From assembly GCA_016179185.1 (NCBI GenBank), contig JACORW010000080.1, forward strand, positions 18,629 through 82,628: a stretch of 64,000 nt of DNA, written 5' to 3'. Below are positions 9,724 through 62,218 of this stretch, piece after piece (within the stretch, counting starts at the first letter, position 1; each line of letters starts with the position of its first letter). The DNA is from Gammaproteobacteria bacterium. GTDB lineage: Bacteria; Pseudomonadota; Gammaproteobacteria; Eutrophobiales; Eutrophobiaceae. Both the position numbers and the translations under genes were made by a program. Below the pieces are notes generated by a model. The model searched no databases. It worked only from the letters and a program-made list of their open reading frames with translations, and was not told the DNA's origin.

Positions 9724-12015
9724 TTACCAGCGATAACTCACCGTACCGCCGACCCAGCGCGGCTGGCCGATCATCTGCTGCATGAAGCCCAAGCTCGTGA
9801 CCGGGATCGCATAGGTGCGGTATCCGTTATCACCGATGTTCTTGACCCATAGCGCCACCTGCCAGGTATCCGAGGCATCGGTCCAGGACAGGCGCCCGTT
9901 GCCGACCACGTAGGTATCCTCCTTCGTGATCGGATTGTTGGCGATGTCGAAGTACTGGTCGCCGACTATGCGGAAGTCCAACTGCAACGCCATGCTGCCG
10001 CCGAACATGGCCCATCCGTAGCGTCCGAGCCCGTTGAACGTGAAGTCCGGCGTCAGGACCATGTCGCGGTCTCGCGTGACGGGGTCGCCGGTAAAGAAGT
10101 TGGCGCTGGTCACGTCCTTGACCTCGGCATCTTGGACGTTCAGCCCGAAGCTGAATTCCCACCCCTCCCATGGATTTGTGATGAGTTCCGCCTCAAATCC
10201 CATGACCTCCGCATCCTTGTTCGAGACCACATTCGTCAGAACTTCGAAACTGAAGGCCTGGAAGTCGCTGTAGTCGTAGTAGTACAGGCTCGTATTGAGA
10301 CGCGCGCGGCCGTCGAGCAGCGTGCTCTTGAAGCCGAGTTCGTAGGCCATCAGCTTCTCTTCGTCGAAGGGGATCTGGGCCGCCGTGCTGCTACCGAGGA
10401 TTCCCGTGCCGTCGATGGCGAAATTGAAGCCGAAGCCCTTCACGCCGCGGGCGACGGAGCCATACACCAGCCAATCGTCCACAGGACGCCAGTCGAGCTC
10501 GAAGCGGAACGACACGTTGTCACCGTCCTGTTTTGTCAGATCACCTACCGTGGCCTCGGTGAAATCGAAGATCACGAAGCCGGGCACCGGCGCGGGAGTC
10601 AGGCCGAGGAAGAACGGCGTGTTGCCGAGGTCGTCACGGGCGATCATCTCGAACTCGCGTTCCTCGTCCGTGTAGCGCGCCCCGCCGATTGCGGTCCACC
10701 GGTCATTGATGTCGTACTCCAGTTGGCCGAACAGCGCCCAGGACTCCGTCAGGTCCGAGTCCACGGTGTTATCGTTGACGAGCCCGATGCCGGAGACGTC
10801 GGTGCGCGAACCGGTGCGTACGTCGCGGTTGAAATAGAAGAAGCCCGTGGTCCAGCGCAGCCGGTCCCGCTCGCCCGCAAGCCGCAACTCCTGGCTCCAC
10901 TGCTGGCTGTCCACGGGGTTCGTGACCGCGATGGCCGGCACTGGACCCACGTCCGTGTCCTCGCCGAAGAACTTGTTCAGGTATTCGAACGCGGAGATCG
11001 ATGTCAACGTCATGCCTGCCACGTTCCAGTCCACGTGTAACGACACGCCAGCGGTGTCCAGGTCCAGGAATGTCTGCCGATCGTTGTCCGTGGCATGGAT
11101 ATCGCCGTCGGTGTCGCGGTAGCCGAAGCAGTCCTGACCCGGGCCGGTGAGCCCCCCGACGCCGGCGCAAAGGGGATTGACCTGGTCGGCTGGGACGAAA
11201 ACCTCGGTGACGCCATCCGGGGCAAACGTCGTCGACGCGTGCTCGTAGGTGGCCGAGATTTGATCCGCGGTGGCGTAATGGGCGCTGGCCAAGATCTCGA
11301 GGTCGACGGTTGGCTGCCACAGGACTTGCCCACGCACGGCCCAGACATCGGTGGAATTGGCATCCTTGAGTCCGGGCGTGCGTGTCTCGCGGTAACCGTC
11401 GTGATCGTGGTATAGGAACGAGACGCGCCCGGACAGCGTATCAGCGATGGGACCGCCCGCAGCACTCTCGAGACGCACTTGATCGTATTCGCCGAACGTG
11501 GCCTCGCCATACCCCTCGAACGTGTCCGTGGGGCGGCGCGTCACCATGTGCACGAGGCCGCCGGACGTGTTGCGTCCGAACAGCGTGCCCTGGGGTCCCT
11601 TCAGCACCTCGGCGCGTTCGAGGTCGAATAACTGAAATCCCAGGCCCGCGAGAGTGGCCTGGTACACCTCGTCCACGTACACGGCCACCGGCGACTCGTT
11701 GTGCTCGGAGAAGTCGTTCAGCCCCACGCCGCGCAGCGTGAACGCCGCATTGTTGCCGTCGCCGAAGGGTGGCACGTATGTGAGGCCCGGCGTCTGCTGC
11801 ACGAGGTCCGTGGTGGTCACGAACCCCAGTTCCTTCAGTTGGTCGCCGCTGAAGGCGGTGACAGCGATTCCGACGTCCTGAAGGTTCTGTTCTCGTTTCT
11901 GCGCTGTGACGAGGATCTCCTCCAGTACGGCCGCGACAGCAGCCGGCGCCGGCACGACGAGGCACAACAGCAGCGACGTTTGAAAGGCACGGAAACAGAG
12001 CGGAGACTGGTTCAT
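9724..12015 (-). CDS. TonB-dependent receptor 1
   Basis: Table ORF extends to 12615, but the extra 200 aa are Arg/Pro-rich junk. Start taken at 'MNQSPLCFRAFQTSLLLCLVVPAPAAVAA' (signal peptide). Plug motifs 'LEEILVTAQKREQNLQDVGIAVTAF' and 'VLKGPQGTLFGRNTSGG'. Barrel terminus '...GGTVSYRW'. Confidence 0.9.
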   Translation of the reverse strand: MNQSPLCFRAFQTSLLLCLVVPAPAAVAAVLEEILVTAQKREQNLQDVGIAVTAFSGDQLKELGFVTTTDLVQQTPGLTYVPPFGDGNNAAFTLRGVGLNDFSEHNESPVAVYVDEVYQATLAGLGFQLFDLERAEVLKGPQGTLFGRNTSGGLVHMVTRRPTDTFEGYGEATFGEYDQVRLESAAGGPIADTLSGRVSFLYHDHDGYRETRTPGLKDANSTDVWAVRGQVLWQPTVDLEILASAHYATADQISATYEHASTTFAPDGVTEVFVPADQVNPLCAGVGGLTGPGQDCFGYRDTDGDIHATDNDRQTFLDLDTAGVSLHVDWNVAGMTLTSISAFEYLNKFFGEDTDVGPVPAIAVTNPVDSQQWSQELRLAGERDRLRWTTGFFYFNRDVRTGSRTDVSGIGLVNDNTVDSDLTESWALFGQLEYDINDRWTAIGGARYTDEEREFEMIARDDLGNTPFFLGLTPAPVPGFVIFDFTEATVGDLTKQDGDNVSFRFELDWRPVDDWLVYGSVARGVKGFGFNFAIDGTGILGSSTAAQIPFDEEKLMAYELGFKSTLLDGRARLNTSLYYYDYSDFQAFSFEVLTNVVSNKDAEVMGFEAELITNPWEGWEFSFGLNVQDAEVKDVTSANFFTGDPVTRDRDMVLTPDFTFNGLGRYGWAMFGGSMALQLDFRIVGDQYFDIANNPITKEDTYVVGNGRLSWTDASDTWQVALWVKNIGDNGYRTYAIPVTSLGFMQQMIGQPRWVGGTVSYRW

Positions 12016-48594: not shown

Positions 48595-49230
48595 TCAGTT
48601 CAGGAAATTGCGCAGTTGCTGCGCCATGCTTTGGCAGGCATTGGACTGCACGCGCGCCAGCAGCGGCACCGGAATGAAGATGGCAGGCAGAAACGAAGTG
48701 CCCTGGGTTTCGGTATTGATTTTCCCCGACAATGTCAGTTCCTTGAAATCCCAGATGCTGGCCTCGTAATTGGCCTCGTCATCCCAGGTGGCGAAACCGA
48801 AACAGCCGCCGCCGCCCGGGCCGATGGCGCAGGAAATGGACCCCTTGCTGTTCACGGTCTCGGTAAAGCCGTCGATCCAGACGAAATAGCGCACGCCGAA
48901 ATTCTGGAATTTCTGTTTGATCTCCGGGATCTGCGCCAGCCGTTCCAGGTTTTTCACGTCCGTGGGCGCGGTGCTGGTTTCAAAATAGGGGTACATGGAA
49001 TCAACGAAGGTTTTCTCCGGAACCACGTTGATGGGATTGCCGCCGCGCGTCAGGTTCTCGCCGACGCAGCGAATGAAATCATCCTCGGTCTCATGCTCGC
49101 TGTTGCTGCGCCGCCCGAGCACGACGATGGACTCGCCGGTGGCAATGTGCGTTGCCGCGATGCGGTGTTCGTCTATGACCGTCGTGCTCTTGCAGCCGGC
49201 GCCCAGGATGAGCACGCCCAGGAGCCGCAT
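48595..49230 (-). CDS. Lipoprotein of unknown function
   Basis: Table ORF to 49293, trimmed to 'MRLLGVLILGAGC' (lipobox LGAGC). No family recognised. Confidence 0.55.
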   Translation of the reverse strand: MRLLGVLILGAGCKSTTVIDEHRIAATHIATGESIVVLGRRSNSEHETEDDFIRCVGENLTRGGNPINVVPEKTFVDSMYPYFETSTAPTDVKNLERLAQIPEIKQKFQNFGVRYFVWIDGFTETVNSKGSISCAIGPGGGGCFGFATWDDEANYEASIWDFKELTLSGKINTETQGTSFLPAIFIPVPLLARVQSNACQSMAQQLRNFLN

Positions 49231-49276
49231 CAGTTGCGCGCGCGGCGTTCGCCGCGGATATTGCGCAACGCAGCGA

Positions 49277-49933
49277 TCAGCAGGCGTCTCCATAACGGTT
49301 GCAATCCCGGGTTTTCAACGCCAGCCAGCGCCGCACGTCCGGTACCTTCTCGAAACCCAGCGCCAGTTTCGCCCCGGCGTCGCGCATCGCAAGATTGATG
49401 GCCGTGGACAGGCCGTCGTCCTTGCTTTTCAGGATCGCGGTCTCGACCTTGCCATAGCCGGTCAACGGCCACTCGGCCACGAGTTGGCCGTCGCTGTCGT
49501 ATAACTGCAGTTGGTACTTGATCCAGGCTTCATACAGTTCGGTCTTGGTCTCCGTCGGCAGCGCGAACTGCATCTCCGCAACGCGCGGCGCGATGACGCC
49601 CGCCACACCGCCGACGCCGGTCGTCGCGGCGGCCGGAGTGACGGCTTCAAACATTGACGGCAGGATGCGATCGAACAGCGCCACCTGGGAATCGCCGCTC
49701 TCTATTTTCCAGTCCGGCCGGTCCTCGGTATTCTCGGTGTATGCGTATGTGCGCAGCACCGGGTCGTAGTACACGCCTAGGTTCAGCGGTATCCGGTTCA
49801 CGGTGGGGATTGGGACCTCGCTGTCCACTTTAATCTGCACCGATTGGGTGCACGCGGTCGCAAGCGCCAGCACGCCGAGGGTCAACGCCCGGCAAAGCAG
49901 CAAGGTGATGAATTGGTGGTTGGTTTGGCGCAT
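49277..49933 (-). CDS. Lipoprotein of unknown function
   Basis: Table ORF to 50005, trimmed to 'MRQTNHQFITLLLCRALTLGVLALATAC' (lipobox LATAC). No family recognised. Confidence 0.55.
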   Translation of the reverse strand: MRQTNHQFITLLLCRALTLGVLALATACTQSVQIKVDSEVPIPTVNRIPLNLGVYYDPVLRTYAYTENTEDRPDWKIESGDSQVALFDRILPSMFEAVTPAAATTGVGGVAGVIAPRVAEMQFALPTETKTELYEAWIKYQLQLYDSDGQLVAEWPLTGYGKVETAILKSKDDGLSTAINLAMRDAGAKLALGFEKVPDVRRWLALKTRDCNRYGDAC

Positions 49934-49988
49934 ACGGATCGGCCTGCCGAACGCTGGTTCGACCCGGTTTCCGTCCCGGGGTTCCGGA

Positions 49989-51020
49989 TCAGAACGGTGT
50001 CCCAATAGTGTAGCGGAATTTCTCCCGGGTGCCGCGAAAGTCGTTCAACCCCACGAATGTGCCCATGTTTTTCCGGGTCATTTCCCGCATCAGGTTGGCG
50101 AAACGGGCGCCGGTGATCTGCTGCTGGGCCGCGAACTGCACCGGGAACCCGATGGCGTGGATACGGATCTGCGGCACGCCGTCATTGTTTTTCGGGTTCA
50201 GCCGCTCGACCTCGTCCAGTACCCGCCGCACTGAATCGCCGGTGAAATCGTCGCCGAACACGTAGATGCTGATGCGCCGGTCCGGTTCGTGATAAGTCCG
50301 GATCGCCTTCTCAATACCCTCCACCGGGCTGCTGTTGCTGAACGGATTCCAGGTGCGCAGGCGATCCAGGATGATCTTGCGCCGCGCGGGCGAATCCGGG
50401 ATCCATTTCCCGCGGTAATCCTGGAACATGTAGCCGCCCTGGTCGTCCATGACCTGGATGCCTTTCACCTTCGGATAGATCTCCAGCACGCCGATCATCT
50501 CCTGCATGACGCGGTTCCACGCGTACTGGAACATGCTGCCGGACGTGTCAATGACGAAGATGACGTATTCGCTGTCCACGGGGATGCCGCCGACCAGATC
50601 GGTGCGCACCTGCTCGCGCCGGGCCGACAGGCGGCGCATTTCTTCGGTCAGATTCTGCAGCGCGGCCTGCAATTCGCCCTTGCGCGCGGCATTGGCGCTG
50701 GCCGATTTTTCCATGCCGGCGGCGTGATCGCGCAGGGCGCCAAATTCTCGGGCAAGCCGCGCCACCCGCTCCTTGATCTCGGACAGCTGTTCGCGCGCCG
50801 CGGTCAGGTCCCGGTTCAACACGCGCGCCTCGCCGCGGATCTCGAACAGCTTTTCCTGCATGTCGGCGATGATGCCGTCCAGGGACTGCGGCGCCGGTTC
50901 CAGTACCAATGGTTCCCCCGGTTTCGAGATCATTATCAGCAGGATGATGGCGCCAAGTCCGCAGGTGATCACGTCCAGGAAGGACAGGCTGAACGCCTCC
51001 GCGCCGCGCCGCCGTCTCAT
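49989..51020 (-). CDS. ExbD/TolR-like TM anchor + coiled coil + VWA domain protein (paralogue B, partly degenerate MIDAS)
   Basis: 'MRRRRGAEAFSLSFLDVITCGLGAIILLIMI' (single TM with Asp), a heptad-like Glu/Arg/Leu-rich stretch, and VWA 'YVIFVIDTSGSM'. ATGA overlap with the upstream gene. Confidence 0.7.
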   Translation of the reverse strand: MRRRRGAEAFSLSFLDVITCGLGAIILLIMISKPGEPLVLEPAPQSLDGIIADMQEKLFEIRGEARVLNRDLTAAREQLSEIKERVARLAREFGALRDHAAGMEKSASANAARKGELQAALQNLTEEMRRLSARREQVRTDLVGGIPVDSEYVIFVIDTSGSMFQYAWNRVMQEMIGVLEIYPKVKGIQVMDDQGGYMFQDYRGKWIPDSPARRKIILDRLRTWNPFSNSSPVEGIEKAIRTYHEPDRRISIYVFGDDFTGDSVRRVLDEVERLNPKNNDGVPQIRIHAIGFPVQFAAQQQITGARFANLMREMTRKNMGTFVGLNDFRGTREKFRYTIGTPF

Positions 51021-52108
51021 GGCCAGTCCGCCGCCGGGCTCAGGAACGATCCGCCGCTGGCTACGGCCAGGCCCCAGAACGAAAACGCCGCCATGGGATC
51101 GCCCTCCATGGGCAGCAGGATGGTATTGACTGGAACATTGTTGGGAAGCTGGTTTGCGGCGGCATTGAACAGCTTCAAGCGTTCGTTGCCGGTGACCTTG
51201 CCGCCGCGGCGGGGCGTCGAGATACCCTGGGTCGGCAGCCCGTCGGTGATCAGGTACACGTTATCCGGCAGCGGGCGCAATCGCGCCACGGCCTGGAATG
51301 CGCGTTCCAGGCTGGTCCCCCCGTCCGGAGCGGCGTCGCGCGCCGCCTGCACCGCCGTTTCCAGTTGTCCGGCATTGGCGACGTCCAGCCACTGACCCTC
51401 GGTGCCGGGCACGGCCGCTTTCACGTCGGTGTCGAACAGGTACACCTGGAATTTTCCACCCACCGGAAAGCGCGTCGTCAACCAGTCCAGCGTGGCCACC
51501 GCCTGGCGCCATTTCCGCGATCCGGTCCTGCGTTCGTCGGTCATGTTCCTGCGCCGGATCACGTTTACCAGGGTTTCATCGAGCATGCTGGCCGAGGTGT
51601 CCAGCAACACCAATATCCGGTCGCCGCCGATCTGCAGGCCGGTGAGATACTGCCGCGTCCCTTCGCCACTGAAGGCCCGGGTGTGTTCCCCGGTCTTGGC
51701 CTGCTCCAATTCCAGCTGCTGCTTCTTCTGCTCCAGGTCGCGGATCTGGGCCTCCAGTGCGGCCAGCTCATCCGTGGCGGAGCTGGCCCGCTTTGCGTCC
51801 GTATCACCCTGCGCCTCCCGGATCTGATCCTGTATGCGGCGCGCCATCCCCTCCGCGATTACCCTTTGCTGCTCCAGCCCGTCAATGGTGTTGCGCAGCT
51901 CCGCGAGTCCTTTTTGACCATCCCGCACCTCGCGATCCAGCAGATTGACCTCGGCGCGCTGATCCGGCGGTGTGTCGGCGGCGGGCACGGTGGCATTGAC
52001 ATTGTGCTTGATGATCAGAAACAACAACACCATCGCCCCGAGCCCGCAGGACATGATGTCCAGGAACGACAGGCTGAAGGTGGGCAGCGGGCGGCGGTTA
52101 CGTGGCAT
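51017..52108 (-). CDS. ExbD/TolR-like TM anchor + coiled coil + VWA domain protein (paralogue A, complete MIDAS)
   Basis: Table ORF (TTG) to 52180, trimmed to the ATG at 52108. 'MPRNRRPLPTFSLSFLDIMSCGLGAMVLLFLII', a coiled-coil-like stretch, and VWA 'ILVLLDTSASM ... DGGTSLERAF ... VYLITDGLPT'. Confidence 0.7.
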   Translation of the reverse strand: MPRNRRPLPTFSLSFLDIMSCGLGAMVLLFLIIKHNVNATVPAADTPPDQRAEVNLLDREVRDGQKGLAELRNTIDGLEQQRVIAEGMARRIQDQIREAQGDTDAKRASSATDELAALEAQIRDLEQKKQQLELEQAKTGEHTRAFSGEGTRQYLTGLQIGGDRILVLLDTSASMLDETLVNVIRRRNMTDERRTGSRKWRQAVATLDWLTTRFPVGGKFQVYLFDTDVKAAVPGTEGQWLDVANAGQLETAVQAARDAAPDGGTSLERAFQAVARLRPLPDNVYLITDGLPTQGISTPRRGGKVTGNERLKLFNAAANQLPNNVPVNTILLPMEGDPMAAFSFWGLAVASGGSFLSPAADWP

Positions 52109-53426
52109 CCGGGTGCGTGGTGCTGATGAGTGAGTAAACCGTATCCGAGCCGGCAAAGCTGATCTTGTCGCCGGCGGCAAGCCGGCGCGGGCCGTCTACA
52201 CGTTCGCCGTCCACGTAAATGGTGATGTCGGCGAGCGGCGTGATGCGGATGTCCATGCCGTTTCCGGTGATGGAGCACGACGATGTAGGCTGCGCCGCGG
52301 TACCGATGGACCCGCGCGCGGAAAGGTAGAGCGTGCGATCGGATACCGGATAGGCCAGGTAGCCGTGCAACAGATGGGTGGCCGCCCGGCTGTCCCGGGC
52401 CGGGCGCCGGGCGGTGACGGCCTCGGGATCGGCTGAGCGCAGCGCGGCCGCTTCCGGAGCCGGCAGTCTGGTTACAAAATTCAGGTTGGGGCCGCCGCTC
52501 TGGATGCGCTCCAGGTGCGCCAGGCAGCCGCGCCGGACCGCGTCCTCACCCAGTACCGGCGCCGCGCCGCATGCGGCCGCAAGTCCGGGCATAGCGGCGG
52601 CGCGATCGCCCAGCAGCGCCATTCGGCCCGGTTCCAGCCGTTGCACGATGGCGGCATATTCCCTTTGCAGCCGCGCGACCATCCCGTCTCGGGTGACGCG
52701 CGCCTGCTGGCGCGATCTGCCTGCGGCAATGTCCAGCAGGATCTCGTGTTGCGACTGCAGTGCGGCGAGACAGCGCGGCAACTGATCGTAAACCGCCTGT
52801 TCGGTCTCGGCGCGATGCAACGGGTCGAAGCGCGACTGTTGAATGAATGCGTCCGCGACCAGCTCCGCGGCAGCATCATGGAACGCCAGTATGCCGCTTC
52901 CTTCCACCACATCCACGCTTTGCCGCTGTACCTCGTTGCCCACGTCAATGCGCGTCAGCACTGCCTGGTGTAGTTGCAGTTCAATGTGCTGATATCTGCC
53001 GGCGCCCGCGACGGATGCGGCGGCTGCCACCGCGGCATCCACCAGGCCGGCTGCTTTGAAGGAGCAGGATTGGCTGATGCCCAGCAGCAATGACAGTTGC
53101 GCGGAGGAAAAACTGCCGGGGACCGCAAAAATGACCTGTTCCGGTTTGCCGGCCTGTTCGTGCAGCAACCGCAGGTGATGCCAGGCCAGATCCGCGTTGT
53201 GCCGCAGCGTGCCGGCGGCATCCGGCCAAGGCTCCTGACTCAGCGCCGACCAGAACCGGTTGTAGGTGTTGCGCGGATGCAGATGCGCGACTTGCGCGGC
53301 CTGTTCTCCGAGTTTCAGCTCGTTGCCCTGGATCACGGCTATGCCGGGGCTGCGCAACAGCGGCCGATCGCCGCGGCTGACGCGTATGTCGGCATCGTTG
53401 AGCTCGATGATGCACGGTGGCGCCAT
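52098..53426 (-). CDS. Degenerate Hsp70/actin-fold protein with an FHA-like C-terminal beta domain
   Basis: 'EQVIFAVPGSFSSAQLSLLLGISQSCSFKAAGLVDAAVAAAAS' parallels DnaK '[44 protein letters not shown]'. The phosphate motifs are replaced ('IIELNDADIRVS', 'IELQLHQAVLTRI'). The C-terminal 'ITIYVDGERVDGPRRLAAGDKISFAGSDTVYSLI' is FHA-like. Confidence 0.5.
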   Translation of the reverse strand: MAPPCIIELNDADIRVSRGDRPLLRSPGIAVIQGNELKLGEQAAQVAHLHPRNTYNRFWSALSQEPWPDAAGTLRHNADLAWHHLRLLHEQAGKPEQVIFAVPGSFSSAQLSLLLGISQSCSFKAAGLVDAAVAAAASVAGAGRYQHIELQLHQAVLTRIDVGNEVQRQSVDVVEGSGILAFHDAAAELVADAFIQQSRFDPLHRAETEQAVYDQLPRCLAALQSQHEILLDIAAGRSRQQARVTRDGMVARLQREYAAIVQRLEPGRMALLGDRAAAMPGLAAACGAAPVLGEDAVRRGCLAHLERIQSGGPNLNFVTRLPAPEAAALRSADPEAVTARRPARDSRAATHLLHGYLAYPVSDRTLYLSARGSIGTAAQPTSSCSITGNGMDIRITPLADITIYVDGERVDGPRRLAAGDKISFAGSDTVYSLISTTHPDAT

Positions 53427-53440
53427 GATGGAACGAAGGT

Positions 53441-54238
53441 TCAGCGGACCTGCAGGTGATAAATGAGATTCTGGTCACAGTAGTTCTGCGTATCCAGCAC
53501 CAGGCGCTCCTGCAGCAACTGCAGTTGATGCATCAGAAACATGATAACCATGCTGACTACAAGCGCGATAAGCGTGGAATTGAACGCCACGCCCAGGCTG
53601 ACGGTGACGCCGACGATGTCGCCCTCAACGGCGCGCTGCGCCTGACCGAGGGCATCGCCGATCCCGCGCACCGTGCCGAGGAAGCCGAGGGACGGAATGG
53701 CCCAGATGATGTAACGCACCAGCGACAGTTCCGAATCGAGCCGATTTGATTCCACGTCGCAGGCATTGCTTACGGCGGCGGCCGCGTCCTGGATATTGCG
53801 CGTCGATCCGAACCGCTGCAGGGCGGTGAGCAGCGCGCGCGGCAGCAGGTACTCGCGCTGGTTCGCGGGCAGAGCCTGCAACGGGCGCGCAAACTTGCGC
53901 GCGTCCTCGGGCAGGATGCTCGTTCCCTCGGTCACCTCCAGCAGCGATTGGCGCAGCAGTCGTCGCTCTCCCATGGTCTGGTGCAGTTTCAGCCCCATGA
54001 TGGCCACCGCCCAAAACGCCAGAATGATCTCCGATTCCTGCTCATAATCCTTGAGCACGATGTAGATGGAGCGCGGCAGTTCGGCGCTTTCCCCGGCCTC
54101 CTGCCGCGCGCGTTGATCGGCCAACAACGCATCCGACGCCGGCCACACGACCATCACATACAACGTGTGCACCAGGATGATGGACACAATCAGCGAGGCG
54201 AGCTGGAAGAAGAAGTCGGAGGAGACGGTGTGCTTCAT
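53441..54238 (-). CDS. MotA/TolQ/ExbB-family proton-channel protein
   Basis: Table ORF (TTG) to 54262; I prefer the ATG at 54238 (uncertain). One N-terminal and two C-terminal TM helices with 'YIIWAIPSLGFLGTVRGIGDALGQA ... VSLGVAFNSTLIALVVSMVIMFL'. Confidence 0.8.
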   Translation of the reverse strand: MKHTVSSDFFFQLASLIVSIILVHTLYVMVVWPASDALLADQRARQEAGESAELPRSIYIVLKDYEQESEIILAFWAVAIMGLKLHQTMGERRLLRQSLLEVTEGTSILPEDARKFARPLQALPANQREYLLPRALLTALQRFGSTRNIQDAAAAVSNACDVESNRLDSELSLVRYIIWAIPSLGFLGTVRGIGDALGQAQRAVEGDIVGVTVSLGVAFNSTLIALVVSMVIMFLMHQLQLLQERLVLDTQNYCDQNLIYHLQVR

Positions 54239-54396: not shown

Positions 54397-54666
54397 TCAT
54401 ATGTCCACCGGAAATGACACCGACAAATCCTCGGAGATTTCCTCGCTGGGCACGAAGGACTCCGGGCTTTTCGATGCGGAGGTCGCCTGCTGCTTCGATG
54501 CCGGTGACGGCGTGGCCGCTCCGGGATCCCCGGCCGGCACGGGCGCCTGCGTTCCGGTTTCCGCCGGTGCAGCTTCAGGTGCTGCGGGAGTTTCATCGGC
54601 GGCGAAGCCCGCGCCGTATAACAGCGCCAGCAATGCCACAACATATGTCGTTCGCAAGATGTTCAT
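54397..54666 (-). CDS. Small secreted Pro/Ala-rich acidic protein
   Basis: 89 aa. Signal peptide 'MNILRTTYVVALLALLYGAGFA', a low-complexity middle, and an acidic tail 'EEISEDLSVSFPVDI'. ATGA overlap with the upstream gene. Confidence 0.5.
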   Translation of the reverse strand: MNILRTTYVVALLALLYGAGFAADETPAAPEAAPAETGTQAPVPAGDPGAATPSPASKQQATSASKSPESFVPSEEISEDLSVSFPVDI

Positions 54667-56744
54667 TCCAGATAGCGGGCAATGCGGAAACCTACATCAT
54701 CGCGTCCGTCCACGCCATAGTCGCGAAAACTCAATCGCAGTTCCGTCACCGTACCGTGCGCCCAGCTCGCGCCGCGGATCACGTGGTGCTGTCCGCCCCC
54801 TGGCCCCTGGGGATCGGTCATCGGCGCGGTCTGCTCCGCCGGCACGTCGTACCAGTCATGCACCCACTCCGCGACGTTCCCGTCGAGGTCATACAGACCC
54901 CTGCCGTTGTGCGCGAAGCTGCCCACCGGGGCGGAAACCGGGTAGCCGTCCTGGTATTTTTCCAGCACCTGGGCGACCAGGCCGACCGCCGACTGATCGG
55001 CAAAGTTGCCGGCCCTGGGCGGCGGCGGCAGCGATTCGCCCCACGCAAAGCGCGCCATGCCGCCGGGATGCTGGCGGGCAGCCCATTCCCATTCCGCTTC
55101 GGTGGGCAGGCGGTAGCCCGCTGCGCCGGGTGTCGCGCCCAGCACCTTGCCGTCGCGCACAAGGTAAAACGGCTGCAGCCCGTCTTTTTCGCTCAACCAG
55201 TTGCAGAACAGTGCCGCGCGCTCCCACGGGATCTTGACCGCCGGCTGGTTGGCGCCGTCCAGGTTTTTCTCCTGAAAATTTCCGGAACTGTGAGTCGGGT
55301 CGAAGTTCTTGAACTCGGCGTTCGTGGTCTCCTTCACCGACAGGTAGAACGGGCGCTTGAGCAGCACCGCGCGCAACGCCTCATTTGCGCGCCGGCCCGG
55401 TTCGCGTCGCGACGCGCCCAGCATGAACACCCCCTCGGGCCGGAACAGTTTCAAATCCTGTCCTCCGCCTGCCGTAATCTGCGGCTTGATGGACGCCTGT
55501 CGGGCTTCCCCCTCGGTCATCAATTTCACGTGCAGTTGCTGCGGGATCCCGGCGCGCGGCGTGATCGTGGTTTCGTGGGCGACGTAGCCCGGCTTGTGAA
55601 TGCGGATGACATGCGCGCGCGTGTTTAACTCCACCGTCTGCGCCGCCGGGCCGCGCGCTTCGCCGTCTATGAACAGCTCCGCATCGGCAGGTGACGCGCG
55701 TATTTCCACCGCGGCCACATCCGCTGTCAGATTCACCTCCAGCGCGCGCCGTTCTCCGGATGCGAGCCGGACGCCGCGCTCGGCCGAGGCATAGCCGTCG
55801 CGAAACAGGCGCACCGTGCTGTTTTCTCCCGGTGTCAGGGCCAGCTCCAGCGGTGTGCGGCCTTCGAACCGGCCGTTGACGGTAACGCTGGCGCCGGCGG
55901 GAATGCTGCGCAGTTCCAGCACGGCGTCGGCGGGCTGCAGCAGGATTTCAGGCAGGATCAGGGGCTGGCCCGCAACGATATCCAGTTTTCGCAGTTCGGA
56001 TTTGTAGCCGGACAACTGCACGCGAATCGCGCGCCGGCCCTCGAGGATCTGCGCCTGCAGCGGCGTGTGGCCCACCGACTGCTCATCAACAAAGATCTCG
56101 GCGCCCGCAGGATCGGAGCTCAGCGTCACATCGGCCCATGCCGGCTTGAGGTCCACGTTCAGAGTCTGTTCCACGCCCAGCCCCTCGATACTGACAGCCT
56201 GTTCGACGGGTTGATGCCGATCCAGACTGAACCGCAGCGCGTGCCCGCCCGCCTCGAGCTTTTCCACCAGAAGCGGCGTGCGCCCGCGCAGGTCGCCGTC
56301 CACCGCGACCTCCGCGCCCGTGGGGCGCGATTCGATGCGCAACTTTCCCGGGAGCTTCGCCAGTACAAAGGACTTGCGCTGATTCTGCTCCGGCCCGATC
56401 TCCAGCATCGTATCCAGCGGATGATAGCCCGGCGCGCGCAGGCGGAGATCGTAGCGTCCCGGTCGCAACAGGAAGCGGCCGCCGAATTGCAGCTTGAAGC
56501 GCGCCGCGATCTCGATCTCCGTCTGTTCCGGGTCGGTAACCACGTGTACTGATTTTGCCGATACGACAAACCAGCCGATTGCGCCCAGGGCACACAGCAC
56601 CAGACCAAACAACAATGCCGCGACCGGCAGCCGGCGGCGCCGCCGGGTGCCGTGCGCGGCCGGCGGCGTAAACGGCGCGGGCCGGATTATGCCGCCGTCA
56701 TCAAAACGCGCGGGTTCGATCTGCTGTATTTCACGCGGACCCAT
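54663..56744 (-). CDS. Membrane-anchored protein with five PEGA-like domains and a C-terminal FGE-sulfatase (SUMF1-like) domain
   Basis: TM 'LPVAALLFGLVLCALGAIGWFVV'. Repeats contain 'SRPTGAEVAVDG', 'SDPAGAEIFVDE', 'SIPAGASVTVNG', 'ASPADAELFIDG'. C-terminal 'YRLPTEAEWEWAAR ... LYDLDGNVAEWVHDWY ... HVIRGASW ... VGFRIAR' is FGE-sulfatase-like. Confidence 0.8.
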   Translation of the reverse strand: MGPREIQQIEPARFDDGGIIRPAPFTPPAAHGTRRRRRLPVAALLFGLVLCALGAIGWFVVSAKSVHVVTDPEQTEIEIAARFKLQFGGRFLLRPGRYDLRLRAPGYHPLDTMLEIGPEQNQRKSFVLAKLPGKLRIESRPTGAEVAVDGDLRGRTPLLVEKLEAGGHALRFSLDRHQPVEQAVSIEGLGVEQTLNVDLKPAWADVTLSSDPAGAEIFVDEQSVGHTPLQAQILEGRRAIRVQLSGYKSELRKLDIVAGQPLILPEILLQPADAVLELRSIPAGASVTVNGRFEGRTPLELALTPGENSTVRLFRDGYASAERGVRLASGERRALEVNLTADVAAVEIRASPADAELFIDGEARGPAAQTVELNTRAHVIRIHKPGYVAHETTITPRAGIPQQLHVKLMTEGEARQASIKPQITAGGGQDLKLFRPEGVFMLGASRREPGRRANEALRAVLLKRPFYLSVKETTNAEFKNFDPTHSSGNFQEKNLDGANQPAVKIPWERAALFCNWLSEKDGLQPFYLVRDGKVLGATPGAAGYRLPTEAEWEWAARQHPGGMARFAWGESLPPPPRAGNFADQSAVGLVAQVLEKYQDGYPVSAPVGSFAHNGRGLYDLDGNVAEWVHDWYDVPAEQTAPMTDPQGPGGGQHHVIRGASWAHGTVTELRLSFRDYGVDGRDDVGFRIARYLE

Positions 56745-58280
56745 TCAAGTTCCTGCGCCGACGGTTTCGGTGCAGCGTATCTCCACCGGCGCCGGCGCGG
56801 CGCCGGCCGCGAGCGTCAATTCGACGCGCGCGTCCCGGAAACCGGGGCGCGTGCCGACGATCACATGGCGGCCGGGCCTCAACGTGATCTCCTTGCTGAC
56901 AAAGCGGCCCAGCTTGCCGACCCGGTACACGGTTACCTCGGTCTTGCCGTCGGACACGAATGTTACGGCAATCGGGACGCGCGCCTCCTGCAGCAACGCG
57001 GTCAGCGCGGCGATCTGCCGCTTCAGTTTCGTTCCCGGCCCGCTGATCTCCCCGGAATGCAGCAGCAGCGCAGTGGTTTCTTCATATACCGTGTCGTCAG
57101 AGAGCCGCTCCGGCCGCGCAATTGCCAGTGACAATTGCCTGTCCAGATCGCTGCGCCGCGTGGCATTCTCGATCCCGGACTGCGCCGCCAGCAGATTCGC
57201 GTCCAGCTTCAGTGCCGCCTCGTACGCCGAGATTGCGGCGGCCCAGTCCTCGGACTGTTCGGCGGCCTGCGCCGCCGCCAGGTGCCGCCCGATCTCCGCC
57301 GAGGTCAGGCCGGTTTCGGCCTGACGCAGCGCGTCCGCGGCTTCGGGCGAGCCCGGCCGGAGGCGCAGGGCGGCGCTGAAATGCCCACGCGCCGCCCCCA
57401 GATCGCCGTTGTCGAGGGCCGCGAATCCGGCGCTCATTGCGGCCCGGTATGCCCGCGCGCCGAGTTCGCTGCGGGCGTTTTGCAGTCGTTCCCGGGCCGG
57501 TTGAAACTCTGGATCGAGGTCGCTGGCCTTTTGGTATGCCTCCGCCGCGCCGGGCAGATCCCCCGCGCCGGACAGCTCCTCGCCGCGCCGGATCAGCTCG
57601 ATGACCTGATCCATGTGTCCGGCGCGCTCCGCTCCCTTGTGCGCGCCGGGGTCATCCGGGCGGATCAACAATGCCGTATGAAACTGCCCGGCCGCGGCCT
57701 GGCCGTTGCCTTCGTTAAGCGCCTGATTGCCGCGCGCCATCGAGTCCGTGAAAACTGCGTCGGCCCGCCGGATCAACGCTTTGAACCGCGGCAGCGCCGA
57801 CTGGAAGGCATCGCGCGCCGACGCGTAATCCAGGGATCGGTAGAAACGATCGCCTGCGGCGAGACTGTCCGCCCCGGCGCGGTAATCGGCCCCGGCCCAG
57901 GACTGCACGCCCATCGCCAGCAACGCCTGGTCCAGTTCCCGCAACCGCTCCAACAGCTCCTGGGCGGCGGCCCGCGCTGCGCCGATTTCCGTTTTCGTCA
58001 ATTCCGATTGGGTGTCTCCAGGCTTTGGCACCGGTTCCGGGCGCGGGTCAGGCTTTGAGACAGCCGGCTTCGGGGGGGCGGATTCGGTCCGGCCCTGCCA
58101 CTGGGGAAGAACGAAGATCACGAACAGCGCGGCAAGCGTCAGCAAACCGATGACGATGGCGGGCCAAAGCAACGGGCTGCCGGGAGTCCCGGTCACGGGC
58201 GGCGCAACCTCACCCGGCGCGTTGCCGAGCTTTACCGGCGCGGGCGCGATGCGATCAAAGGGATGAGTGGGTTGTTCCAT
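56745..58280 (-). CDS. Membrane-anchored TPR-repeat protein with a PEGA-like C-terminal domain
   Basis: Table ORF to 58343, trimmed to the ATG at 58280 ('MEQPTHPF'). TM 'LLWPAIVIGLLTLAALFVIFVL', then repeated Ala/Leu-rich 34-mer-like units. The tail 'VTFVSDGKTEVTVYRVGKLG...LRPGRHVIVGTRPGFRDARVEL' is PEGA-like. Its stop abuts the next ATG. Confidence 0.65.
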   Translation of the reverse strand: MEQPTHPFDRIAPAPVKLGNAPGEVAPPVTGTPGSPLLWPAIVIGLLTLAALFVIFVLPQWQGRTESAPPKPAVSKPDPRPEPVPKPGDTQSELTKTEIGAARAAAQELLERLRELDQALLAMGVQSWAGADYRAGADSLAAGDRFYRSLDYASARDAFQSALPRFKALIRRADAVFTDSMARGNQALNEGNGQAAAGQFHTALLIRPDDPGAHKGAERAGHMDQVIELIRRGEELSGAGDLPGAAEAYQKASDLDPEFQPARERLQNARSELGARAYRAAMSAGFAALDNGDLGAARGHFSAALRLRPGSPEAADALRQAETGLTSAEIGRHLAAAQAAEQSEDWAAAISAYEAALKLDANLLAAQSGIENATRRSDLDRQLSLAIARPERLSDDTVYEETTALLLHSGEISGPGTKLKRQIAALTALLQEARVPIAVTFVSDGKTEVTVYRVGKLGRFVSKEITLRPGRHVIVGTRPGFRDARVELTLAAGAAPAPVEIRCTETVGAGT

Positions 58281-58449
58281 GGCAATAAGGGCGCGGTTGC
58301 AATCATTGCATGCATTTATCGGCCGGCGTAAAGCCGGCCCCACAAGAATCTCTGGAATCCGAACGCCCTTGTGGGGCCGGGTTCATCCCGGCCGGGAGGC
58401 GCGCATCGGAAAATAGACACTTGAGGTCCGGAAGACCTCGTGCTTGATG

Positions 58450-59679
58450 TTACTGTTCTCTTACCGGCAGTGTCGGTGCCGTCCCGGTCTCGGTGCGATA
58501 GATCTCCTGCAGGATCTCGCGCCACTGCGCGTACTGCTGATCTACCGTACCGGACAGCGTGACGGTCCGATCCTCCAGCTCCATCCGGTGCGGCTGAATG
58601 TCCGCGTCAAGGGAGGCGGCGATTTCCTTCAACGACTCCAGGTGCAGTTTCGCCTCGGCGTTGCGGTCCAGCCCGCTCTTCACGAGCATCGCGCCGGCGC
58701 CGATGCCGGTCAGTCCGCCCAGCGTGCCCAGCGTCCGCAGGCCGGGATCGCTGCTGTTGGCGCCAAAATAGATGGCGGCTATGCTGGCGGCGATGGCCGC
58801 AATGCCGCCCACGGTGCGCGCCGCCGCGGAACCACGCGCCTCATGCAACTGCCGGATCTCGGAATAGCTTTCGTTGCGCCATTGCAGATAGGGACTGCGC
58901 ATCTTCGCCGCGTAGCCGGTGTAGTGGTCCTGAAGGGTATCCACGAACAGATTGTCGCGCTCACGGATGCGCCGCAGCCGCTCCATCAACGGGTCATTGT
59001 CGGCGGGCAGGCGCGCGATGCTGTATCGCCCCTTGCCGTCCCGGGTCAGGTATCCCGAGTAAATCTCCGGAGCGAAACGCTCGGCAAAGCGCAATTCGCT
59101 GATGGTGCGCAACGCACTCACCTGCGCCGGGGTTATCTGGCTGCGAAACGCGGCCATGTCGCTGGCGATGCGGTTGTAAAGCCCCTGGAACGGTTCGATG
59201 CTGCGGCTCAGTTCCTTGTCGTAGGCGTACTTGCTGGCCTCTGCCTCATAGGTGCGGGTAAACCAGGTCTTGCCGGAGGAGTCCTGCACCGTGATCTGCA
59301 ACTTCAGAAATTCGCCGTCGGACTGGAGGATGACGCCGTCCACAAATACGTCCATTTCGCTGCGTTGTCCCGGGACCACGCGCACAACGCCCCAATTGCC
59401 CGTGTTCTGCAGCGTCGTGGCAAGCAGGGTCGGGAAATAACGCGCCTCGGCCTGGCGCACTTCCGGATAGATCAGTTCCAGTTCCTTGTCGCTCAATCCC
59501 TCGGTGCCGGGATTGAAAATGTTTACGCCGACGTCCAGCAGCATCGCTTCCGGGACCGCGCCGGTGGGGTCGGCGCGCACCGGCGTCTGGGACGTGGTCT
59601 TGACCGTGGTGGTGTTGCAGCCCGGCAGCAGCAGCGCTACCAGCAACGACGCGATCAATGTGCGCAGGGACGTCATCAT
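58450..59679 (-). CDS. Lipoprotein with C-terminal glycine-zipper-like hydrophobic segments
   Basis: 'MMTSLRTLIASLLVALLLPGC' lipobox. 'VGGIAAIAASIAAIYFGA ... LGTLGGLTGIGAGAMLV'. No family recognised. Confidence 0.55.
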   Translation of the reverse strand: MMTSLRTLIASLLVALLLPGCNTTTVKTTSQTPVRADPTGAVPEAMLLDVGVNIFNPGTEGLSDKELELIYPEVRQAEARYFPTLLATTLQNTGNWGVVRVVPGQRSEMDVFVDGVILQSDGEFLKLQITVQDSSGKTWFTRTYEAEASKYAYDKELSRSIEPFQGLYNRIASDMAAFRSQITPAQVSALRTISELRFAERFAPEIYSGYLTRDGKGRYSIARLPADNDPLMERLRRIRERDNLFVDTLQDHYTGYAAKMRSPYLQWRNESYSEIRQLHEARGSAAARTVGGIAAIAASIAAIYFGANSSDPGLRTLGTLGGLTGIGAGAMLVKSGLDRNAEAKLHLESLKEIAASLDADIQPHRMELEDRTVTLSGTVDQQYAQWREILQEIYRTETGTAPTLPVREQ

Positions 59680-60851
59680 TCCTTCACCGGTATGCCCTTG
59701 TATTTGCGATATTCATTCCAGAGTTTCTCCCGCAGCACAGGGTCGGGTTCCTGCATGGCCGCCTCGCGCAACTGGCGCGCGACCACGTCGTCGTCATTTC
59801 CGCGCGGAATGTCCTGCGGTACCGCGGCCACGGCGACCGGCCCATGATCCCCGGCGCGCTCCGGCACAGGCAGATCCGGCATGCCGCCACCAGCGGAATT
59901 GGAATTACGGTTTCCCCTGCCGCCACCGCCGGTCAGCGGTGGAGGCGCATCACCACTGCCGCCCGCCCCGGTCCCCTCTTCGCCGTCATCCCCGGACTCG
60001 TCGCCGACACCAGGTCCGGTGCCCTCATCATCGGCGCCCACGGTACCGCTGTCCCGCTGCCGGGCGGCCGCCGCGGCGCGTTCCTCCAGCAGCATGCCGT
60101 CGAACTTTGCCAGCTGCTCGCCCAGGCGTCCGTCCAGCAATACAACCTGCTCACCCTGGGTGACGGCGCCGCCGGGAGCGGTGCCTGCGCCGGTGCTTCC
60201 GGAAGTTCCCGCAGTGGAGCCGGTGGTTCCCGCGCCGGGCGAACCGCCGGCGATGGTGGTTCCACCGCCCGGCGCCGCACCCGCAGGCGGACTCCCGGCC
60301 GTGCCCACGCCTTGCGCGTCGTTACCTCCGGCGGTGCCGGCTCCCGCTTCTGACGAAGCCGTCAACGGCGGCGGGCTGTCGGATTCGGAACCCGGCGCTG
60401 GCGCGCTCTGCATGCCTTTGTCGAAGGTTTCCAGTGCCGCCTCCAGCACTTCTTCGTCGGACTGCGATTTGCCCGACGCCCCGGTATTGTCCTCGGCGGC
60501 AGGCGCACCGGCAGCCGGGTCACCGGCTCCCGTGGCCGGGAGACCCGCGGGGGGCGCACCGGCATTCGCCTGCGCTGCGGCGTCTGGCGGGGCGGATTCG
60601 CCGGGTTGCGATGGGGCGGATTCAGACCGGGCCGTCGTGGGTTCCGCAGCCGATTCGGACTGGGACCGGCTCTGTTCGCTGGCGGGAGGACTCGTCGCGG
60701 GCGAAGGGGGCGATTGCGTCGAACTCTGCGGCGGCTGCGGCATCGCCGGCGGAGTCGGCTGGCTCGGAGGCGTCGAACACGCGGCTGCGGCGGCCAGAAT
60801 CAACCCGCACGCGAACTGGTGTCCATGCCGGCGCAGAAAGATTGTGTCCAT
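59676..60851 (-). CDS. Lipoprotein with a very long Pro/Ala/Ser/Gly-rich disordered region and a short conserved-looking helical C-terminus
   Basis: 'FACGLILAAAAAC' lipobox, about 300 aa of low complexity, and the tail 'DDDVVARQLREAAMQEPDPVLREKLWNEYRKYKG'. ATGA overlap with the next gene. Confidence 0.55.
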   Translation of the reverse strand: MDTIFLRRHGHQFACGLILAAAAACSTPPSQPTPPAMPQPPQSSTQSPPSPATSPPASEQSRSQSESAAEPTTARSESAPSQPGESAPPDAAAQANAGAPPAGLPATGAGDPAAGAPAAEDNTGASGKSQSDEEVLEAALETFDKGMQSAPAPGSESDSPPPLTASSEAGAGTAGGNDAQGVGTAGSPPAGAAPGGGTTIAGGSPGAGTTGSTAGTSGSTGAGTAPGGAVTQGEQVVLLDGRLGEQLAKFDGMLLEERAAAAARQRDSGTVGADDEGTGPGVGDESGDDGEEGTGAGGSGDAPPPLTGGGGRGNRNSNSAGGGMPDLPVPERAGDHGPVAVAAVPQDIPRGNDDDVVARQLREAAMQEPDPVLREKLWNEYRKYKGIPVKE

Positions 60852-60868: not shown

Positions 60869-62218
60869 TCAGTTGACGGGGACGCGCCTAATCGTGCCCA
60901 CGGTGTCCACAGCCACGCCGTTTTCCAGCCGCGGCCGAAATCGCTTGCCACGGATCGACTCCAGCACCTTGCGCCGCGAAGAGGTCTCCGCCCCGGGGCT
61001 GGTTTCCGTGACCTCCGCGTTGCGGACACGCCCGGTCTTGCTTACGTCATAGCTGACCGTGATGTATTTCGCGGGATTCTCCGGCGCCACCTGCCGGTCG
61101 ACACTCGGCAGCGACAGGCGCAACGCCGGTACGGAAACCGGCGCGCCGAACAATGCCTCGATCACCTTGTCGCCCTCCGGGATGCCCTGAAGCAGTTGCC
61201 ACGCCTTCTGGTAATGTTCCATGGCGGTGCCCGCGCTTCCGCGGAGAATATGCCAGTCGCCCAGATGAACCAGCGCCTCGGCGCGCGATTGCGCCGGCAA
61301 ATCCGGGTGCGCTTCGTGAATGGCGACAACCCGTTCCAGCGACCTGCGCGCCGCGAAAAAACGCCGCTCCACGTCGAGGTCCTTCTCGTCCTGCGCGCGC
61401 GCATAGGTGCCGATATTCGTGACCGGAATCAGGTAACATGACATGCCGATCTGCCCGTTCGGCAATCGTACGGGCATGCAGCGCTGCATGTAGCTCACCG
61501 TGCTGGTGGCCTGGCGCTGTACATATTTGTCCAGCGGCCGGTTCGCATATTCAATCATGGCCTGATAACTGGCCAGTGCGTGTCCGTACCGGAGTTCGAC
61601 CAGGCGTGGGTCGTTTTCGCCGTAGCGTTGCTCGGTCAGTTTGATGGTGCGGGAGAAAAGATCCGCGGCCTCGCTCACCGTCCCGTAGGCCTTGTCCTTC
61701 AGCAGTCCGTCGCGATAGGCCTGAATCTTCCAGCGTCCCACCTCGTCATAAACATTGAGCAGTTCCTGATCCCCTTCTGCGTAATTGCGGCGATAGATCC
61801 ACAGCATCTGGTCGAAGTTCTGATCGACCTCGGCCCAGTCCCGCAGCGCGATCTGGCTCTCTATGATGTCGTGCAGCAGGGGAACCTGGCCGAGATCCTG
61901 CAGTCCGTCGTTGACGCGTTTGATGTGAAACGCGCGCTTCAGCGAATCCACCGCGCGCGTGTGATCCTGCAACTGCTGGTACACGCGTCCCTGGCTCAGC
62001 AATTGTTCCCCGAGCCGGCCGTCATAGGGCCCATAGTCGGACTCGAGCCTGGCGATTTGCTGTTCGTATTGTTCCGCGATGGACAGCAGCTCCACGGACG
62101 TGGCGGACGGCGCGCGGTTGTCGGCGCCGGCAGGCGGTGTTGCGTCCGCGGCGGCGGCGACCGTACACGCAAGTCCCCACGCCACAGCACAACCGGCAAT
62201 AGTCAGTGTCTTGCCCAT
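60869..62218 (-). CDS. Secreted helical-repeat (TPR-like) protein with a TonB_C-like C-terminal domain
   Basis: Signal/lipobox-like 'MGKTLTIAGCAVAWGLACTVAAAADA'. The C-terminal 'YITVSYDVSKTGRVRNAEVTETSPG...KVLESIRGKRFRPRLENGVAVD' follows the TonB C-terminal domain pattern. Confidence 0.5.
   Translation of the reverse strand: MGKTLTIAGCAVAWGLACTVAAAADATPPAGADNRAPSATSVELLSIAEQYEQQIARLESDYGPYDGRLGEQLLSQGRVYQQLQDHTRAVDSLKRAFHIKRVNDGLQDLGQVPLLHDIIESQIALRDWAEVDQNFDQMLWIYRRNYAEGDQELLNVYDEVGRWKIQAYRDGLLKDKAYGTVSEAADLFSRTIKLTEQRYGENDPRLVELRYGHALASYQAMIEYANRPLDKYVQRQATSTVSYMQRCMPVRLPNGQIGMSCYLIPVTNIGTYARAQDEKDLDVERRFFAARRSLERVVAIHEAHPDLPAQSRAEALVHLGDWHILRGSAGTAMEHYQKAWQLLQGIPEGDKVIEALFGAPVSVPALRLSLPSVDRQVAPENPAKYITVSYDVSKTGRVRNAEVTETSPGAETSSRRKVLESIRGKRFRPRLENGVAVDTVGTIRRVPVN

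Follow-up and report, generated by a model that had tools for sequence, protein, structure and literature searches.

The closest described counterparts of the locus reported here are the TPH-vWA proteins, a second vWA family set out in 'Origin and Evolution of Bacterial Periplasmic Force Transducers' (Mol Biol Evol 2025; section 8 and Fig. 4c,d of PMC12204202). These are vWA proteins tethered by a transmembrane helix (TMH), whose genes are closely linked to one of the tolQ type and have no tolR, exbD or motB nearby; the helix carries a conserved Asp and no SHLS motif, the channel contains a ring of Thr residues, and the proteins, which are found mainly in Proteobacteria and Verrucomicrobia, come "predominantly ... 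in heterologous pairs" (PMC12204202). AlphaFold 3 models, offered there as a computational proposal, place the two Asp residues within the ring of Thr in a TolQ-like pentamer (PMC12204202). Two adjacent genes, vwaA and vwaB, in the 64,000-nucleotide stretch of gammaproteobacterial DNA analysed here (the window) encode von Willebrand factor A (VWA) proteins behind a MotA/ExbB-type channel gene. Every feature stated for TPH-vWA was found at this locus and nothing contradictory was seen, and VwaA and VwaB appear to be members of that class, as judged by matching features rather than by alignment to the Idiomarina loihiensis reference proteins. We put at about 0.65 the probability that the two form the dimeric inner ('axle') part of a proton-driven 5:2-type motor with a TolQ/ExbB-like pentamer as its outer ring. 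A first-pass annotation of this DNA, which had arrived at a similar idea and took the architecture to be undescribed, had been anticipated by the 2025 publication; its idea is an independent rediscovery of a published, purely computational hypothesis. What is new here is the conserved 12-gene context, an Hsp70-like/FHA-like partner protein and a small protein with a conserved tail. PMC12204202 makes no mention of the Hsp70-like/FHA-like protein, of the PEGA and FGE-sulfatase protein or of the wider 12-gene cluster, and a literature search on the whole combination (PEGA, FGE, TolQ, vWA, Hsp70, FHA) returned nothing beyond that paper.

The better known motors of this type share part of the layout. 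With MotA-MotB, PomA-PomB and ZorA-ZorB the locus has in common the 5:2-type channel family and an Asp-bearing single transmembrane (TM) helix in the partner, whereas the OmpA-like peptidoglycan-binding domain, a Pfam match to the MotB plug and a flagellar or defence context are all absent. With ExbB-ExbD and TolQ-TolR it shares the PF01618 channel family and the P..G..GTV.GI and (A/S)T pore motifs, but VwaA and VwaB carry a coiled coil and a VWA domain instead of the ExbD/TolR periplasmic domain, their dimer would be a heterodimer of paralogs, and the cluster shows no evident third subunit of the TonB/TolA type with SHLS.

The two VWA genes and their helices are given below, with residue conservation taken from 100 diverse B-type (VwaB) and 71 A-type (VwaA) homologues, 171 in all.

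51017 to 52108, minus strand: VwaB, 363 aa, ATG at 52108; basic N-terminus, TM helix, heptad stalk and VWA domain with a metal ion-dependent adhesion site (MIDAS)
52010 to 52078, minus strand: VwaB TM helix FSLSFLDIMSCGLGAMVLLFLII, Asp17 codon at 52058-52060; Asp in 100 of 100
49989 to 51020, minus strand: VwaA, 343 aa, ATG at 51020; architecture as in VwaB
50925 to 50993, minus strand: VwaA TM helix FSLSFLDVITCGLGAIILLIMIS, Asp16 codon at 50973-50975; Asp in 71 of 71

Both open reading frames (ORFs) proved real at these coordinates, and their ATG starts are supported by the agreement with homologue lengths, which run from 361 to 364 aa for B-type and from 331 to 346 aa for A-type proteins. 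The TGA stop of vwaB overlaps the ATG of vwaA (ATGA), and 11 nt at the start of vwaB are shared with the gene upstream. BLASTP aligned the two proteins over residues 2-164 at 28% identity (E = 3e-12), and an hhalign comparison of the A-family and B-family profiles extended over 310 columns (probability 99.9%, E = 5e-32), indicating that the two are full-length paralogs, VWA domains included. The layout that the first-pass annotation had read in both proteins, a basic N-terminus, an Asp-bearing TM helix, a heptad-like stalk of about 100 aa and a VWA domain, was thereby borne out in each paralog. The family is large, with 291 clusters (50% identity) at E <= 1e-30 in an exhaustive library search.

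The N-termini, MPRNRRPLPTFSLSFLDIMSCGLGAMVLLFLII and MRRRRGAEAFSLSFLDVITCGLGAIILLIMIS, present three to five basic residues followed by FSLSFLD(I/V)(M/I)(S/T)CGLGA. The helix Asp (D17 in VwaB, D16 in VwaA) was invariant in all 171 homologues, the flanking F, L, C, G-x-G and A were 94-100% conserved, and the family motif reads [SA]F[LM]D[VIC][MI]xCG[FL]GA, which in VwaA and VwaB contains no His and no SHLS. AlphaFold2 placed the VwaA helix at residues 14-31, with the Asp two residues in, on the side of the basic N-terminus, which is presumably cytoplasmic. A short basic N-terminus followed by a single TM helix whose Asp lies two or three residues in is the arrangement of ExbD and TolR as well, and the local string F-(L/I)-D-V-(M/I) is shared with the FIDVM of ExbD. 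The proton-relay residues of the known partners are ExbD D25, TolR D23 and MotB D32.

The proposed outer ring is encoded by a third gene on the same strand.

53441 to 54238, minus strand: MotA/ExbB/TolQ-family channel subunit, 265 aa from ATG 54238; the ORF reaches TTG 54262

Its likely true start is ATG 54238, as the orthologues are 265 aa long. The ORF matched PF01618 (MotA_ExbB) with 49 bits and E = 5.6e-13, and its motifs P..G..GTV.GI and NST carry T189 and T222, both invariant in the 38 sequences of the channel-family profile, including Verrucomicrobial and other distant members. By MAFFT and also by profile alignment, T189 and T222 align to T145 and T178 of TolQ and to T148 and T181 of ExbB, so that P-x-x-G-x-x-G-T-V-x-G-I and (A/S)-T superimpose on both pore-lining threonines of the E. 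coli proteins. The neighbouring channel named by the first-pass annotation is therefore present as a PF01618 gene, but it lies two genes upstream and not immediately adjacent.

Whether the association of channel and VWA pair holds elsewhere was read from other genomes. A degenerate-pattern scan with one genome per species gave more than 590 loci; the best 80 of these were kept and, together with one further locus (L001), form the 81 loci in which genes were counted by tblastn with the window proteins. VwaA and VwaB occurred as a pair in 79-81 of the 81, the order channel, 442-aa gene, vwaB, vwaA was kept in 74-75, and the channel gene accompanied the VWA pair in 74; the other seven had little or no upstream sequence, or no match at the threshold. 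Two loci (L075 and L080) have no 442-aa gene, and there the channel directly precedes vwaB. Among five distant loci (L082 to L086), the channel was found in four (L082, L083, L084 and L086), the fifth, L085, being cut off upstream and showing only a B-type gene and then a 323-aa gene. L082, from a Puniceicoccaceae member of the Verrucomicrobiota (31% identical), runs PEGA-FGE ... channel, 499-aa gene, then a B-type and an A-type VWA gene (E = 2.6e-112 and 5.2e-58, respectively), and L084 and L086 are arranged in the same way. Judged from the sequences, the A/B split is older than the divide between Gammaproteobacteria and Verrucomicrobia, or crosses it. ExbD gave no match in any of the 81 or the distant loci, the one TolR-like match lay 10 kb outside the cluster in L015, and no exbD, tolR or motB gene was present inside any of about 85 clusters examined. 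Homologues of the VWA proteins do, then, neighbour MotA/ExbB genes, in 74 of 81 loci and 4 of 5 distant ones, and this distribution supports the view that the VWA pair behaves genomically as the channel's missing partner.

Several results weigh against reading VwaA and VwaB as an axle. A helix profile (HMMER) built from 52 N-terminal segments recovered none of the PDB chains of ExbD, TolR or MotB, and PF02472, the Pfam ExbD/TolR family, was absent from the full proteins and from the 52 segments. In a search with all filters off of 6431 background ORFs to which E. coli ExbD, TolR and MotB had been added, these three scored -1.2, -0.5 and -1.4 bits, no better than noise, and ranked from 446th to 1283rd; the E. 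coli ExbD sequence used agrees with PDB 6tyi except at one distant residue. An hhalign comparison of the helix with an ExbD/TolR mini-alignment paired the Asp residues, but without significance (P = 0.05, probability 0.6%). The channel is itself very divergent: phmmer found no match for it in the PDB, and the 38-sequence profile recovered TolQ, the sole solved relative found, at the weak score of E = 0.023. In L083 the channel and a 465-aa Hsp70-like gene are accompanied by just one VWA gene, so a heterodimer is not universal and a homodimer is implied there. In the AlphaFold2 model of VwaA the stalk has low confidence and breaks at residues 62-68 and 105-111, and for this reason it may fold back instead of extending. 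The placement in TPH-vWA, finally, goes by features and not by alignment to the reference proteins.

Because the profile tests were non-significant, homology of the helix to ExbD, TolR or MotB is not claimed, and membership of VwaA and VwaB in the ExbD/TolR family was rejected, given the absence of PF02472 and of significant helix-profile similarity. As far as the sequences go, the likeness is one of layout only: the helix 'works like' that of ExbD/TolR and is not an instance of it. Of the ExbD/TolR-like helix proposed at first, the layout with its invariant Asp stood and profile similarity, by PDB, Pfam, background ranking or hhalign, did not; lack of such similarity had been named as half of a finding that would count against the proposal, and at the sequence level this half is what was found. 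The top non-family match of the helix profile was a 130-aa ORF at about 15503 on the plus strand, starting MPARHRPDRLSLSFLD and reading ..RLSLSFLD.. (E = 0.13). No hydrophobic helix follows the motif, and the ORF, which lies in a GC-rich alternative frame, was set aside as a chance match.

A helix with no detectable ExbD/TolR homology would also fit proteins that sit beside the channel or do not bind it at all, as peripheral transducers of the TolA/TonB kind or as an anchored adhesion or scaffold like BatA/BatB, with the true axle elsewhere or absent, and a separate vWA family that binds peripherally has been described (PMC12204202). The helices, however, lack the SHLS/His motif of TolA/TonB-type anchors, and an invariant acidic residue in a TM segment would be costly unless functional. 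The tight coupling of the genes and the absence of any ExbD, TolR or MotB gene from the roughly 85 clusters argue in the same direction, and we consider a peripheral role very unlikely.

The segments that follow the helix were examined for their fold and conservation. Family-averaged hydrophobicity over the stalk (residues 45-150 in VwaB and 48-140 in VwaA) had peaks at periods of 3.5 and 2.35 residues, which are heptad harmonics (second and third); among 2000 shuffles the B value was reached by none and the A value by 1.35%. This periodicity in both families upholds the heptad-like stalk of about 100 aa, and the AlphaFold2 monomer of VwaA shows long helices in the same region. Residues 150-325 of that model have pLDDT values of 75-91, and Foldseek returned only VWA domains from the PDB (probability 1.0, E ~1e-6), namely ITIH4, ArnB, ITIH1, Rpn10, anthrax toxin receptors and vWF A3, while a phmmer search of the PDB with both proteins gave coiled-coil noise or nothing. 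VwaB scored 26.4 bits against Pfam VWA_2, just under the cut-off of 27, with its homologues at 28-31 bits. The VWA fold is in this way established for VwaA by AlphaFold2 and Foldseek, and for VwaB by its near-cut-off match together with homologues above the cut-off.

The MIDAS residues are conserved in both heads. In VwaB these are D170 (95% D, 5% E), S172 (100%), S174 (97%), T265 (88%, with 6% S and 6% A) and D289 (100%); in VwaA, D158, S160, S162, S230 at the Thr position and D257 were each found in 100% of the A-type homologues, as were S228-N229-S230 and G256-D257 as units. Profile alignment pairs S230 of VwaA with T265 of VwaB and D257 with D289. Both heads look like conserved putative binding sites, that of VwaA with Ser in place of Thr. 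The first-pass annotation had called the VwaA head degenerate and paired it with an active one in VwaB; since DxSxS, the Ser in the Thr position and the Asp are invariant in VwaA and both MIDAS sets are conserved, that idea fails.

VwaA differs from VwaB in a near-invariant periplasmic juxtamembrane segment at residues 33-72 (50805-50924, minus strand), KPGxPxxLE...G.I.DLQE.LF.IRGEA.VLNRDL, which has no counterpart in VwaB and might be a plug or an interface to the periplasmic face of the channel. The 442-aa protein encoded between the channel and vwaB has neither a signal peptide nor a TM segment and is for that reason taken to be cytoplasmic, and it combines an actin fold like the nucleotide-binding domain (NBD) of Hsp70/DnaK (about residues 1-330) with an FHA-like domain (about 350-435). 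Its AlphaFold2 model has a pLDDT of 94; the top 50 Foldseek matches were all Hsp70, Hsp110 or DnaK (E from 1e-15 to 1e-13), with TM-scores of ~0.65-0.68 against isolated NBDs. The FHA-like part matched by profile the FHA domains of KIF13B (1.2e-4), EssC (5e-4) and Ki-67, 14 of 29 family members carry a Pfam FHA match, and the L084 counterpart carries Yop-YscD_cpl. Where Hsp70 has DLGTT, DLGGGT and GG..R.P, the family has ELND(S), DIHLH.T and sDRla.LP, as placed by eye from the order of secondary structures, and in the FHA-like domain the GR and SxxH residues that canonically bind phosphothreonine are apparently missing. From these apparent replacements, the protein may be a non-catalytic adaptor.

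These two observations bear on a further explanation, in which the VWA proteins are ligand-gated plugs or sensors: a periplasmic ligand bound at the heads would open or close the path for protons, and a signal or depolarisation would reach the Hsp70-like/FHA-like protein with no mechanical work being done. The channel and the Asp helix fit this equally well, the very conserved juxtamembrane segment of VwaA could serve like the MotB plug, and the conserved FHA-like/Hsp70-like partner in the cytoplasm points to signalling or to regulation of assembly. On the other hand, the FHA-like domain lacks the residues needed for canonical phosphothreonine binding, none of the conserved genes of the cluster encodes a kinase, phosphatase or transcription factor, and most of the cluster's products are exported scaffold-type proteins (PEGA, TPR, lipoproteins) typical of trans-envelope machines. 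A purely sensory role therefore seems unlikely, and we return to the motor.

The genes around the VWA pair follow one fixed order of 12 across the 81 loci, shortfalls in the counts being mostly contig ends. They are listed in the order of the cluster, all on the minus strand.

Position 1, 60869 to 62218, minus: 449 aa, TPR / TonB_C-like, exported; 44 of 81 loci
Position 2, 59676 to 60851, minus: 391-aa predicted lipoprotein (lipobox AAAC), low-complexity with a conserved C-terminus; 52 of 81
Position 3, 58450 to 59679, minus: 409-aa predicted lipoprotein (lipobox LPGC, by sequence reading); 54 of 81
Position 4, 56745 to 58343, minus: 532-aa TPR protein, N-terminal hydrophobic stretch read as a membrane anchor; 59 of 81
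Position 5, 54663 to 56744, minus: 693 aa, FGE-sulfatase domain plus four PEGA domains, with a hydrophobic N-terminal stretch interpreted as a membrane anchor; 65 of 81
Position 6, 54397 to 54666, minus: 89-aa small secreted protein; 54 of 81
Position 7, 53441 to 54238, minus: the channel; 74 of 81
Position 8, 52098 to 53426, minus: the 442-aa cytoplasmic protein; 75 of 81
Position 9, 51017 to 52108, minus: VwaB; 81 of 81
Position 10, 49989 to 51020, minus: VwaA; 81 of 81
Position 11, 49277 to 49933, minus: predicted lipoprotein (lipobox ATAC), likely ATG 49933, ORF to 50005; 72 of 81
Position 12, 48595 to 49230, minus: predicted lipoprotein (lipobox GAGC), likely ATG 49230, ORF to 49293; 67 of 81

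By orthologue lengths and signal peptides, the true starts of the channel and of 49277-50005, 48595-49293 and 56745-58343 probably lie downstream of those of the longest ORFs. The start codon of the 532-aa TPR protein is uncertain; its orthologues are ~521 aa long and an internal start is probable. The C-terminal TonB_C-like domain of the 449-aa protein scored 19.5 bits, below the cut-off, and the 409-aa lipoprotein has a Gly-rich hydrophobic C-terminal region. Searches of NCBIfam and Pfam returned nothing for the 442-aa protein, the four lipoproteins and the 89-aa protein.

This gene content also bears on anti-phage defence. A Zorya-like system built on a MotAB-like module was considered, as the channel matched PADLOC ZorA2 weakly (E = 0.0035, 14 bits). 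The other PADLOC matches were coiled-coil noise, and none was to ZorB, C, D or E. The cluster encodes overwhelmingly envelope proteins and no effector such as a nuclease or helicase, and a fixed 12-gene synteny over many families and two phyla is unlike the patchy distribution of defence islands. With nothing from PADLOC beyond this marginal ZorA match and the noise, the defence reading was rejected, and it retains almost no plausibility.

The small secreted protein at position 6 has a variable low-complexity body and a near-invariant C-terminus ...ISEDLSVSFPVDI-COOH in 62 of 70 loci, with the consensus F.P(S/T)E.ISEDLSVSFPVDI-COOH; its tail ends ...SFPVDI. The Verrucomicrobial counterpart (L082:2057-2323) ends ...VEMPSDV-COOH and keeps [FM]PxD[IV]-COOH. 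This tail could be a docking peptide, with the VWA MIDAS site or a TPR protein as candidate receptor.

If VwaA and VwaB are an axle, the motor could work as follows. The two would probably be made in equal amounts through translational coupling at the ATGA overlap, and the single TM helix of each would sit in the channel pentamer, with a 5:1:1 stoichiometry and the N-terminus in the cytoplasm. There, D16 of VwaA and D17 of VwaB would face Thr189 and Thr222 of the channel and take up and release protons, as ExbD D25, TolR D23 and MotB D32 do. The dimer would continue as a heptad coiled coil of ~100 residues, up to ~15 nm long if fully extended, a stalk that would carry two metal-dependent VWA heads, their MIDAS sites intact, into the periplasm. 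The heads would grip partners from the cluster: the PEGA and FGE-sulfatase protein, the TPR proteins, the four or five lipoproteins, or the ...SFPVDI-COOH protein. Proton flow would then be converted, presumably by rotation, into torque or a pull exerted on an assembly of the outer envelope, comparable to the driving of PorKN by GldLM/PorLM, and the Hsp70-NBD-like/FHA-like protein would probably dock at the cytoplasmic face as regulator or anchor.

The comparison with GldL-GldM and PorL-PorM and their PorK/GldK-PorN assembly is one of shared logic, a MotA-like pentamer round the helices of a periplasm-spanning dimer. The FGE-sulfatase domain of GldK/PorK is shared by the 693-aa protein, which matches TIGR03525 (GldK) through that domain at E = 1.6e-24, although with a score far under the family cut-off (87 vs 350 bits). 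VwaA and VwaB have no homology to GldM/PorM, whose hosts are Bacteroidota, whereas the hosts of the VWA locus are Gammaproteobacteria and Verrucomicrobia; the GldM helix reportedly uses Arg, not Asp. A second comparison is the Agl-Glt system of Myxococcus, with its AglRQS motor, TPR and TonB_C-domain Glt proteins and VWA adhesin CglB (PMC9946355, PMC11761067). The present cluster likewise joins a TolQ/R-type motor, TPR proteins, a TonB_C-like domain, lipoproteins and VWA domains, a likeness of logic only: in Agl-Glt the VWA domain is on an outer-membrane lipoprotein adhesin and the axle is the TolR-like AglQ/S, whereas VwaA and VwaB unite VWA domain and proposed axle in one chain.

Taken as a whole, the 12-gene set may tentatively be read as one envelope-spanning apparatus, driven by the proton-motive force, that moves, secretes or tensions something at the outer membrane. 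It would consist of the motor pair, the probably non-catalytic Hsp70-like/FHA-like adaptor, the PEGA and FGE-sulfatase protein, two TPR proteins (one TonB_C-like), four or five lipoproteins and the tail protein, whose ...SFPVDI-COOH would be a docking peptide, for example a MIDAS or TPR ligand, and the machine would be widespread among Gammaproteobacteria of marine and soil habitats and occur in Verrucomicrobia as well. If the motor model is right, the VWA pair and its channel would represent a fourth use of the 5:2 proton motor, with a long stalk and a metal-dependent adhesion head fused directly to the axle and no part played by TonB/TolA, a peptidoglycan anchor or GldM. The 12-gene context names concrete candidate partners, among them the actin-fold protein of the cytoplasm and a possible peptide ligand, for a large family with no phenotype or experimental structure on record that occurs in culturable bacteria (Microbulbifer, Congregibacter, Pseudoalteromonas denitrificans and Kineobactrum).

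In the Verrucomicrobial locus L082, a gene for a CsgG-family (curli-secretion-channel-like) lipoprotein lies just downstream of the cluster on the opposite strand (10982-11944, minus) and may or may not be functionally linked to it. The 80 kept loci are Gammaproteobacterial and include, besides the four taxa just named, Halieaceae, Porticoccaceae, Pseudohongiella and Colwellia. Several contigs from metagenome-assembled genomes (L016, L052, L077 and L002/L005/L049/L056) carry the cluster under the titles Phenylobacterium, Vicinamibacteria, Klebsiella pneumoniae or 'uncultured Enterobacteriaceae'. The cluster on these contigs is otherwise Gammaproteobacterial, of Cellvibrionales/Alteromonadales type, and the odd labels look like errors of binning or labelling rather than genuine spread.

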